Part shown: positions 2 through 1,129 of the stretch, piece by piece
Layout: each line of letters begins with the position of its first letter
How positions within the stretch are numbered: the first letter of the stretch is position 1
Assembly: GCA_000004985.1 (NCBI GenBank)
Contig: GG739511.1
Reading direction: 5' to 3' (one strand)
Length of the DNA stretch: 1,191 nucleotides
Source: Naegleria gruberi
Taxonomy: Eukaryota
Position numbers and translations under genes: made by a program
Notes under the pieces: generated by a model
What the model saw: the letters and a program-made list of their open reading frames with translations, nothing else
What the model was told of the DNA's origin: nothing
Databases searched by the model: none

Positions 2-160
2 AAACCAAAGTTTGTCAATCCAGAAGTTAGAATTGCCATGGAAAAACTAGCTAAACTTCCACTTGTCATGAGTTGTGATGCTTGGTTGAATCAATATGAC
101 CCAGGTCTTTTGGAAAATGCTGAAGAAGGTCAAGAAGAAGATCTAACAAGCAGTAATTAA
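2..160 (+). CDS. 3'-terminal fragment of a protein-coding gene (52 codons + TAA stop at 158-160); product not recognised; acidic C-terminal tail. The CDS continues upstream of the window
   Basis: Frame 2 is the only frame on either strand open across 2-157. The other two + frames and all three - frames carry multiple stops here. Translation: KPKFVNPEVRIAMEKLAKLPLVMSCDAWLNQYDPGLLENAEEGQEEDLTSSN*. It is amino-acid-like, with a hydrophobic core and a Glu-rich tail. Codon choice is consistent (GAA x8, AGA, CCA, GGT). Composition drops abruptly to about 8% GC immediately after the TAA. Confidence 0.6.
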   Translation, partial: KPKFVNPEVRIAMEKLAKLPLVMSCDAWLNQYDPGLLENAEEGQEEDLTSSN

Positions 161-260: not shown

Positions 261-281
261 CGAATTGTTACAGAACTAACT

Positions 282-346
282 AGACTAACGCTGAAGCCTG
301 GTAAAAAGTGTCGCTCGCGACCCTTAAACAAATGGCAAAGTTACAA
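282..346 (+). repeat. Left terminal inverted repeat arm (outer block 282-297, diverged spacer 298-329, inner block 330-341, partial match continuing to about 346)
   Basis: Manual reverse-complement alignment against 1062-1129. The 16/16 and 12/12 cores are flanked by weaker similarity (TTACAAAAA versus CAAGAAAAA). The spacer is roughly 50% identical. Confidence 0.5.
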
Positions 347-469
347 AAACTCGCGCCCCCGCTTAATGTTTAAATTTAATAAAAAAAAATTAATTCCTCA
401 TCACTACTCACACCATCATCGGAACTGTAGTCAGCACCAGAGGCACCAAGTCACCTTCCATATCATTGG

Positions 470-691
470 TCAAAAACAAATATCTTGTGATGATGTCAAT
501 CCTATACACCTCGTTCGCCTTCCCACCACAGTGGAGGTAGTTTTTGTTATGTACTTTCTCTGCCTCTCTCCTCTACGGTAAGTCTTTTCGAAAACTTCAT
601 ACTCATCTCGTGGACCATTAATTAATTCGTAATTGTTGTATGATGGATTCCATTGCTGTAAAGAACATCGCCAAGTGCCGCAGGAAAACAA
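470..691 (-). CDS. Unsupported 73-aa ORF inside the element. It may be a remnant or captured coding fragment rather than a gene
   Basis: It is the most protein-like translation in the interior (…WNPSYNNYELINGPRDEYEVFEKTYRRGERQRKY…). But it is short, overlaps the + strand ORF 366-581, has no recognisable family, and sits in a 43% GC island bounded by TIRs. Confidence 0.12.
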   Translation of the reverse strand: MFSCGTWRCSLQQWNPSYNNYELINGPRDEYEVFEKTYRRGERQRKYITKTTSTVVGRRTRCIGLTSSQDICF

Positions 692-1037
692 GTAGCCATA
701 GTGTTGTTAACATGAAGAATGTGAAATGGTTTTAAGGGTTGTCTTCCTTCAGCAAGAATATCATAGATGGAAGTAGACAAATCCTTGCTGTTGACCACCA
801 ACGAATTTGGAGAAGTTACACCTTATTCTTTGACCAGTTATTGGTGGAGAGGAATTATGCGAATTGGAGCACTCTAGGTTGCTTGTCATCCTTGTCCACT
901 AGTACTCTGATACGGTTGTTGGTAGAAACATTACTTTAATCTTCAATAAAACCACTATTTAAAGGTGAAAAATTTCTTTTTATTTCAAATTTTATTCGTA
1001 ACGGTGTTGGCGGGCTGTTTTGCAAGGAGGGAAATCT

Positions 1038-1090
1038 CTGACTTTGCATTTTTGCCCATTTTTCTTGACTTTGCCATTTTTTTGACAAGG
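1038..1090. repeat. Degenerate tandem sub-repeats inside or next to the right arm: CTGACTTTGCATTTTTGCCC / CTTGACTTTGCCATTTTTTTGAC. These are reiterations of the inner TIR motif
   Basis: TTGAC/CTGAC occurs at 1038-1042, 1065-1069 and 1082-1086. TTTGC(A/C) and ATTTTT units alternate. Reverse-complemented, these read AAAATGCAAAGT, AAAATGGGCAAA and AAATGGCAAAGT. That is three near-copies of the motif, which occurs once on the left arm. Confidence 0.45.
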
Positions 1091-1129
1091 TGTTTTTTGG
1101 GCCGTCTTTCAGTGCTTCAGCGTTAGTCT
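1062..1129 (-). repeat. Right terminal inverted repeat arm (inner block 1068-1079, spacer 1080-1113, outer block 1114-1129)
   Basis: Reverse complement of 1062-1129 aligns with 282-346 at the same block order and near-identical spacing. Confidence 0.5.

Follow-up and report, generated by a model that had tools for sequence, protein, structure and literature searches.

The window (the whole 1,191-nt stretch of Naegleria gruberi DNA analysed here) begins with the 3' end of a predicted host coding sequence and, beyond an AT-rich spacer, carries an 848-bp unit at 282-1129 that is bounded by a perfect inverted repeat, holds a second inverted-repeat block inside each end and encloses a decayed open reading frame (ORF) on the minus strand. 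A short motif within the inner block is reiterated in the right arm of this unit. The features are as follows, with the ends of the unit named by the orientation of the ORF.

2-160, plus strand: predicted 3' end of a host coding sequence, outside the proposed element (frame +2, stop TAA at 158-160; from the ORF and its translation)
271-281, plus strand: near-duplicate of the terminus (CAGAACTAACT versus AGACTAAC, 1-nt indel), directly outside the left outer repeat
282-297, plus strand: outer terminal inverted repeat, left (AGACTAACGCTGAAGC), 16/16 complementary; putative 3' end of the element
326-349, plus strand: inner inverted-repeat block, left (AAACAAATGGCAAAGTTACAAAAA), holding the lone left 12-mer (330-341), 32 nt inside the outer repeat
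376-953, minus strand: decayed, internally deleted ORF related to EFC35415.1 (phmmer, tblastn and frameshift-aware alignment)
985-1077, minus strand: 30-codon ORF (MAKSRKMGKNAKSE...), starting at an ATG inside the exact 12-mer
1038-1086, plus strand: motif tandem array at the putative 5' end of the element, ~2.5 copies of an 18-nt unit (Tandem Repeats Finder)
1038-1050, plus strand: array unit 1, truncated (CTGAC-TTTGCATT)
1051-1069, plus strand: array unit 2 (TTTGCCCATTTTTCTTGAC)
1070-1086, plus strand: array unit 3 (TTTGCCATTTTTTTGAC)
1060-1083, minus strand: inner inverted-repeat block, right, pairing with 326-349, 34 nt inside the outer repeat
1114-1129, minus strand: outer terminal inverted repeat, right (GCTTCAGCGTTAGTCT on the plus strand); putative 5' end of the element

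Two inverted-repeat blocks and a tandem motif array

The outer repeat is a perfect 16-mer of mixed composition. An inverted repeat of 16 nt was reached in 0.1% of 1000 dinucleotide shuffles (P ~0.001), and the shuffles whose longest inverted repeat reached that length were low-complexity ones. The inner blocks span 24 nt, are 83% complementary between the arms and contain the exact 12-mer; an exact inverted run of 12 nt whose distances from the outer repeat agree to within 3 nt in the two arms would arise by chance with P = 0.004. Similarity between the arms is confined to these two discrete islands, because neither the spacer between the outer and inner blocks (P = 0.66) nor the DNA further inside than the inner blocks (P = 0.49) is detectably similar between them. 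This pattern is expected of functional cis-sites and not of the uniform decay of a long repeat. A long degenerate fold-back is ruled out, as the two halves are not complementary beyond the two blocks, and so is recognition through a hairpin or cruciform, as the arms fold no better than shuffles (z +0.4 to +1.1). Searches of the window against Rfam at E up to 1 and scans for tRNAs gave no match. With neither hairpins nor a match to an RNA family or tRNA, structure-based alternatives are therefore excluded. Around the left 12-mer, we note a direct repeat matching at 9/10 positions, CTCGCGACCC (314-323) and CTCGCGCCCC (350-359), 36 nt apart. GC clusters lie in comparable places in the right arm (1100-1107 and 1009-1017), and their similarity between the arms is not significant.

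The 12-mer AAATGGCAAAGT occurs exactly at 330-341 (plus strand) and 1068-1079 (minus strand), on the coordinates and strands given in an earlier, sequence-only reading of the window. That reading had also described two degenerate copies in the right arm, the first missing one base and the second carrying an extra one, and three TTGAC/CTGAC pentamers spaced 17-27 nt apart and interleaved with the 12-mers. The copy at 1041-1052 (ACTTTGCATTTT) is indeed the 12-mer minus one base (edit distance 1). For the copy at 1051-1063 (TTTGCCCATTTTT) the description holds for the 10-nt core TTTGCCATTT, into which one C is inserted, and fails for the full 12-mer, from which this copy is 3 edits away, the AC being missing. 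The pentamers (YTGAC) lie where they had been placed, CTGAC at 1038 and TTGAC at 1065 and 1082, with spacings of 27 and 17 nt. Together, the three 12-mers and three pentamers are a single tandem array and not independent interleaved sites, because Tandem Repeats Finder resolves 1051-1086 into 2.0 copies of the 18-nt unit TTTGCC(C)ATTTTTNTTGAC (89% matches, score 56) and a truncated third unit at 1038-1050 precedes the two full ones. The pentamer is not conserved on the left, where the arm reads GTTAC in place of the GTCAA of the right arm and TTGAC is absent; it therefore lies outside the conserved inverted repeat. The subterminal position of the motif within an inverted-repeat unit and its unequal copy number at the two ends, both claimed in the earlier reading, are borne out by the perfect 16-mer with inner blocks 32 and 34 nt inside it, and by a count of 1 copy at the left end versus ~2.5 at the right. 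We discarded the idea that TTGACA at 1082 marks a bacterial promoter: no sigma-70-like site was called there, and counts equal the shuffle expectation.

The motif array is statistically real, beyond the chance of local composition. Allowing ≤2 mismatches, the 12-mer occurs 4 times against 0.37 expected, and at least 4 occurrences were reached in 0/200 shuffles. Two further copies of the core at edit distance ≤1 within the T-rich stretch 1000-1067 have a probability of P = 0.0008 (5000 dinucleotide shuffles), and the AT-rich spacer at 161-281 holds no additional copy of the core at that distance. YTGAC alone is mildly enriched (10 versus 4.7 expected, with 10 reached in 6/200 shuffles). Outside the right outer repeat, GCATTTTTTCCTCTTTTT (in the stretch 1140-1169) resembles the array at 1046-1063 (83%, z ~2.9), and AAATCGCAAATT (1158-1169), also beyond the repeat, reads as the 12-mer in the opposite orientation with 2 mismatches. 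These array-like strings may have arisen by chance in T-rich DNA or may be left over from the end of a second element. Their presence at 1140-1169 weakens both the composition-independent significance of the motif and the placement of the right boundary.

The extra right-arm copies are explained equally well if an 18-nt unit was duplicated by replication slippage within a T-rich tract, which makes slippage a serious rival for them, and it is possible, though doubtful, that the element is real and its reiteration neutral, with the inner block an island of a once longer repeat and the extra copies devoid of any binding role. The form of the array suits this account, as 18-nt units simply follow one another head to tail, one of them truncated, and the degenerate copies are set apart by indels of one base within homopolymer-like runs. 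Short tandem duplications are frequent across the window, as in the micro-tandems at 187-239 and the near-duplicated terminus at 271-290, and similar strings of G/C plus T-runs persist beyond the outer repeat. However, the inner 12 nt are perfect and stand at an equal offset in both arms, while the 32-34 nt spacers are unrelated. The interior ORF, described below, is also heavily decayed, and two perfect islands are not what uniform neutral decay would be expected to leave.

The interior open reading frame

An exhaustive phmmer search with the frame-corrected minus-strand translation against 1.84 billion proteins returned a single match, EFC35415.1 (E = 7.6e-4). No other search recovered it: no hit came from word-indexed protein searches in which the flank and every interior ORF piece served as queries, and the interior ORF pieces matched no Pfam family. 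EFC35415.1 (XP_002668159.1) is recorded as "predicted protein, partial [Naegleria gruberi]", has 681 aa and forms a singleton cluster; its gene sits alone on a 2504-nt unplaced contig. With EFC35415.1 as the query against the window, tblastn aligned residues 121-197 to 789-649 (E = 3e-11) and residues 17-44 to 953-879 (E = 2e-6). The second of these matches was absent from the phmmer query and therefore confirms the homology independently. Frameshift-aware alignment gives a secure collinear match of 953-616 to residues 17-223, with 70-94% identity in alignment blocks of at least 10 residues, the many short linking blocks being less informative. The first 16 residues of EFC35415.1 have no credible alignment to the window. 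Past residue 223 the alignment is likewise not credible, and the homology of 615-376 is uncertain.

Relative to EFC35415.1, the ORF has ~45% of its codons deleted, is interrupted by 3 in-frame stops and changes frame at least 8 times. The minus-strand stops at 938-936, 876-874 and 624-622 face E, K and Q of EFC35415.1, respectively, and each is one base change away. Alternative genetic codes 4, 6 and 10 restored no long ORF, and the ciliate code was rejected as an explanation of the TAA opposite Gln, that TAA being one of three single-base nonsense changes. The interior is thus a dead, internally deleted copy of an EFC35415.1-related gene on the minus strand, and a decayed copy of an orphan N. 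gruberi ORF independently supports the mobile-element context that had been proposed for the motif. Because the ORF lies on the minus strand, the right arm with its array would be the 5' end of the element, upstream of the ORF. Within the ORF, deletions far outnumber substitutions. On the opposite (plus) strand, the canonical eukaryotic 5' splice-site string GGTAAGT occurs at 567-573, and no supporting exon structure was found.

No match to EFC35415.1 was found in Pfam, NCBIfam, PHROG or the PDB, and no transposase, DNA-binding or other domain was detected in it. Its single-sequence AlphaFold model is unusable (pLDDT 32).

The position of the array relative to the ORF raises another account, which we consider distinctly unlikely: that the motif is an expression signal or N-terminal coding sequence. 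Here AAAAATGGCAAAG would be an A-rich start context plus ATG, the array would encode MAKSRK-MGKNAKS or serve as a uORF or promoter element, and the left copy would follow from the inverted repeat. On the coding strand, the alignment becomes secure from codon G17 (at 953), and the array precedes this codon by ~85-175 nt. Its ATGs at 1077 and 1059 share one frame, with a period of 18 nt that is divisible by 3, the 30-codon ORF spans 1077 to 985, and no ATG is present where Met1 of EFC35415.1 is expected, at or just above 1001. The third ATG (1049) nevertheless does not share that frame, and the ORF ends with a stop at 985-987, ahead of the homologous part and in a different frame from it. Annotated EFC35415.1 begins MNTNKG without a MAKSRK extension, and its first 16 residues are the ones that do not align credibly. 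Expression, moreover, would not require the motif to be mirrored at an equal offset in the opposite arm.

Boundaries, flanks and searches for other copies

The 16-mers are flanked by AACT on the left and GGGG on the right. A systematic scan of all terminus pairs for a target-site duplication found no direct repeat of ≥3 bp beside a good inverted repeat; the closest approach is TA at the left end versus TG at the right, if the termini are moved by 1 nt. By the generic tests for a Class II element, terminal inverted repeats are thus present (16/16, plus a second block at a matching offset) and a target-site duplication is absent. Directly outside the left repeat, CAGAACTAAC (271-280) and T281 adjoin the start of the outer repeat, AGACTAACG (282-290), such that the terminus is near-duplicated in tandem. 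If the right end is read with C (G1130), the consensus terminus would be CAGACTAAC... Further out, the window ends in CGAATTG (1185-1191), a 7-mer also present at 261-267, with GTTACAGAAC and GTTCTGCAAAC in inverted orientation just inside this pair (stretches 261-276 and 1171-1191). An outer boundary with CGAATTG as a 7-bp duplication was set aside as too weak: the match is 8/12, and the distance between the 16-mer and the GTTCTGCAAAC match on the right exceeds that of its left counterpart by 37 nt.

The flanking ORF at 2-160, whose translation ends in AWLNQYDPGLLENAEEGQEEDLTSSN before the stop, has no homologue among 5.8 billion proteins. The spacer that follows its stop (161-270) has 9-26% GC, compared with ~38% for the coding sequence. 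This composition, the codon choice and the sole homologue agree with a Naegleria-like nuclear genome. Look-ups by exact product for eight ORFs of the window and for EFC35415.1 returned no contig. Two AT-only micro-tandem arrays, of periods 10 and 11, lie at 187-239, in the 9% GC part of the spacer between the flanking stop and the element.

Relatives of the element were absent from the viral, metagenome, prokaryote, plasmid and phage collections searched, which yielded neither a second copy nor DNA of an autonomous partner. A whole-window blastn search found no plasmid or phage similarity, and the viral and prokaryote genome collections do not contain a window-specific interior 29-mer (669-697). 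The outer 16-mer has 33 single matches in IMG/VR, a number consistent with a rough chance estimate, and none is accompanied by the inner motif. Of these 33, 10 are related phage contigs that share an exact 21-mer with 279-299 of the window, including the outer repeat (at 9068-9088 of one contig, for example). We rejected this 21-mer as a sign of relationship and regard it as a coincidence within one phage family, given no further similarity and no tRNA there. The gapped pattern of outer plus inner block gave one independent match in metagenomes, with no further similarity and attributed to chance, and none in prokaryote genomes. String searches of the literature for the repeat sequences and for EFC35415.1 and XP_002668159.1 returned nothing relevant.

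These results bear on a third account, that the unit is non-mobile: a pseudogene of an ordinary Naegleria gene bracketed by inverted repeats from local rearrangement, with the motif a T-rich compositional feature. Points in its favour are the lack of a target-site duplication and of a demonstrated second copy, the lack of a transposase domain in EFC35415.1, and the array-like T-rich strings beyond the repeat. A non-mobile pseudogene with fortuitous repeats is nonetheless improbable and the least likely of the readings, because two blocks in register, inverted and at matching offsets, enclose exactly the pseudogene. The intact homologue, moreover, is alone on a 2.5-kb unplaced contig, as is typical of collapsed repeats; this separate contig is the one indirect hint of multiple copies.

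The proposed element and its place among DNA transposons

The sequence-only reading had named hAT, Mutator, P and Tc3-type elements as ones in which short subterminal repeats are the usual transposase-binding sites; no target-site duplication, matching repeat form or transposase domain of these families was found here. P elements of Drosophila combine a short terminal repeat with a separate internal transposase site tens of bp inside each end, across unrelated spacers. They also have extra subterminal inverted repeats and non-identical ends, and give rise to non-autonomous copies by internal deletion; their repeats are 31 bp long, their target duplication is 8 bp and their transposase has a THAP domain. 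The present unit resembles them in its short terminal repeat, separate inner block, unrelated spacers, non-identical ends and internal deletion. It differs in that its repeat is 16 bp, it has no 8-bp duplication and no THAP domain, and the sequences are unrelated. In Ac/Ds and other hAT elements and in En/Spm (CACTA), reiterated subterminal motifs (AAACGG hexamers in Ac, a 12-bp motif in En/Spm) bind the element's protein, with many copies dispersed over 150-250 bp, in both orientations and asymmetrically between the ends. Short terminal repeats, a reiterated short subterminal motif and asymmetric ends are shared here, but the unit has one left copy versus a tight 2.5-copy tandem on the right, carries no duplication (8 bp in hAT, 3 bp in CACTA) and has no BED, hAT dimerisation, hAT or Tnp2 domains.

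In Tc3, a Tc1/mariner element, the two binding sites are related in sequence and lie inside long (462-bp) repeats flanked by a TA duplication. The unit likewise has a terminal site plus a second, internal candidate site within an inverted repeat; unlike Tc3, its outer and inner blocks are unrelated, its flanks are TA versus TG, and no DDE_3 or HTH domain is present. Mutator/MULE elements differ more plainly: the unit has neither a 9-bp duplication nor a MULE domain, and its arm similarity consists of two short blocks and not of long repeats. It differs from a MITE in keeping an ORF remnant within its 848 bp, and it has no target duplication. Kolobok elements have been reported in Naegleria (PMC9587614). 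The host lineage and the 5'-RR...YY-3' form of the termini (AG...CT here) are consistent with that group, but Kolobok has TTAA duplications and a recognisable DDD/E transposase, whereas AACT and GGGG flank the present unit and no transposase domain of that kind is found. The named superfamilies hAT, P, Mutator and Tc3 are analogies and not assignments, because EFC35415.1 has no hAT, P, MULE, Tc1 or other domain. The most fitting label for the unit is an unclassified, internally deleted and non-autonomous element with terminal inverted repeats. An unclassified element is unsurprising here, because all but a small fraction of the repeats in N. gruberi resist assignment to known transposable elements (PMC12344493).

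We favour, with roughly even confidence, the reading that 282-1129 is a dead, non-autonomous copy of an unclassified cut-and-paste-type DNA element with two-part ends, in which the inner block is a likely docking site and the 5' array arose by duplication. Read on the minus strand, each end would comprise the 16-bp repeat, an unrelated spacer of 32 or 34 bp and the ~24-bp inner block centred on AAATGGCAAAGT. By analogy with known elements, the terminal repeat would be the presumed site of cleavage and synapsis, and the inner block a likely subterminal, high-affinity docking site for the element's own EFC35415.1-like protein. At the 5' end, the 18-bp unit holding the inner block would have been duplicated locally in tandem to ~2.5 copies, so that the 3' end of the element would carry a single site and the 5' end as many as three. 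The additional 5' units could add affinity or help to tell the two ends apart. From this architecture and its analogues we infer that the unit transposed, that the ORF product acted as its transposase and bound the inner block, and that the extra copies may have been relevant to this binding.

Non-autonomous DNA transposons are typically copies that have lost internal sequence and kept intact ends. Defective copies of the proposed element may have been filtered for continued mobilisation by a protein recognising the end blocks; such selection for mobilisability is proposed because the end blocks are intact and in register, while the interior ORF is wrecked and the spacers are unrelated. A subterminal repeat in a transposon end is in itself textbook architecture, here in an under-annotated lineage. 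A broader proposal, which we think rather unlikely, is that the EFC35415.1-like orphan is the transposase of an undescribed superfamily of heterolobosean DNA transposons, with a bipartite end (16-bp terminus plus reiterated 12-bp subterminal site) and no conventional target-site duplication.

If the favoured reading of a dead, non-autonomous element is right, the window provides the cis-acting ends of an unclassified Naegleria element (the 16-mer, the 12-mer and their defined spacing) and ties this end architecture to a candidate trans-acting protein that now has no annotation. Repeat annotation in Naegleria would benefit from a defined element whose ends and ORF are both in hand, and such an element could reveal a transposase family that is missed by current profile methods. 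The 2504-nt contig carrying the EFC35415.1 gene has about enough room for one ORF and two such ends, an observation that is suggestive only.
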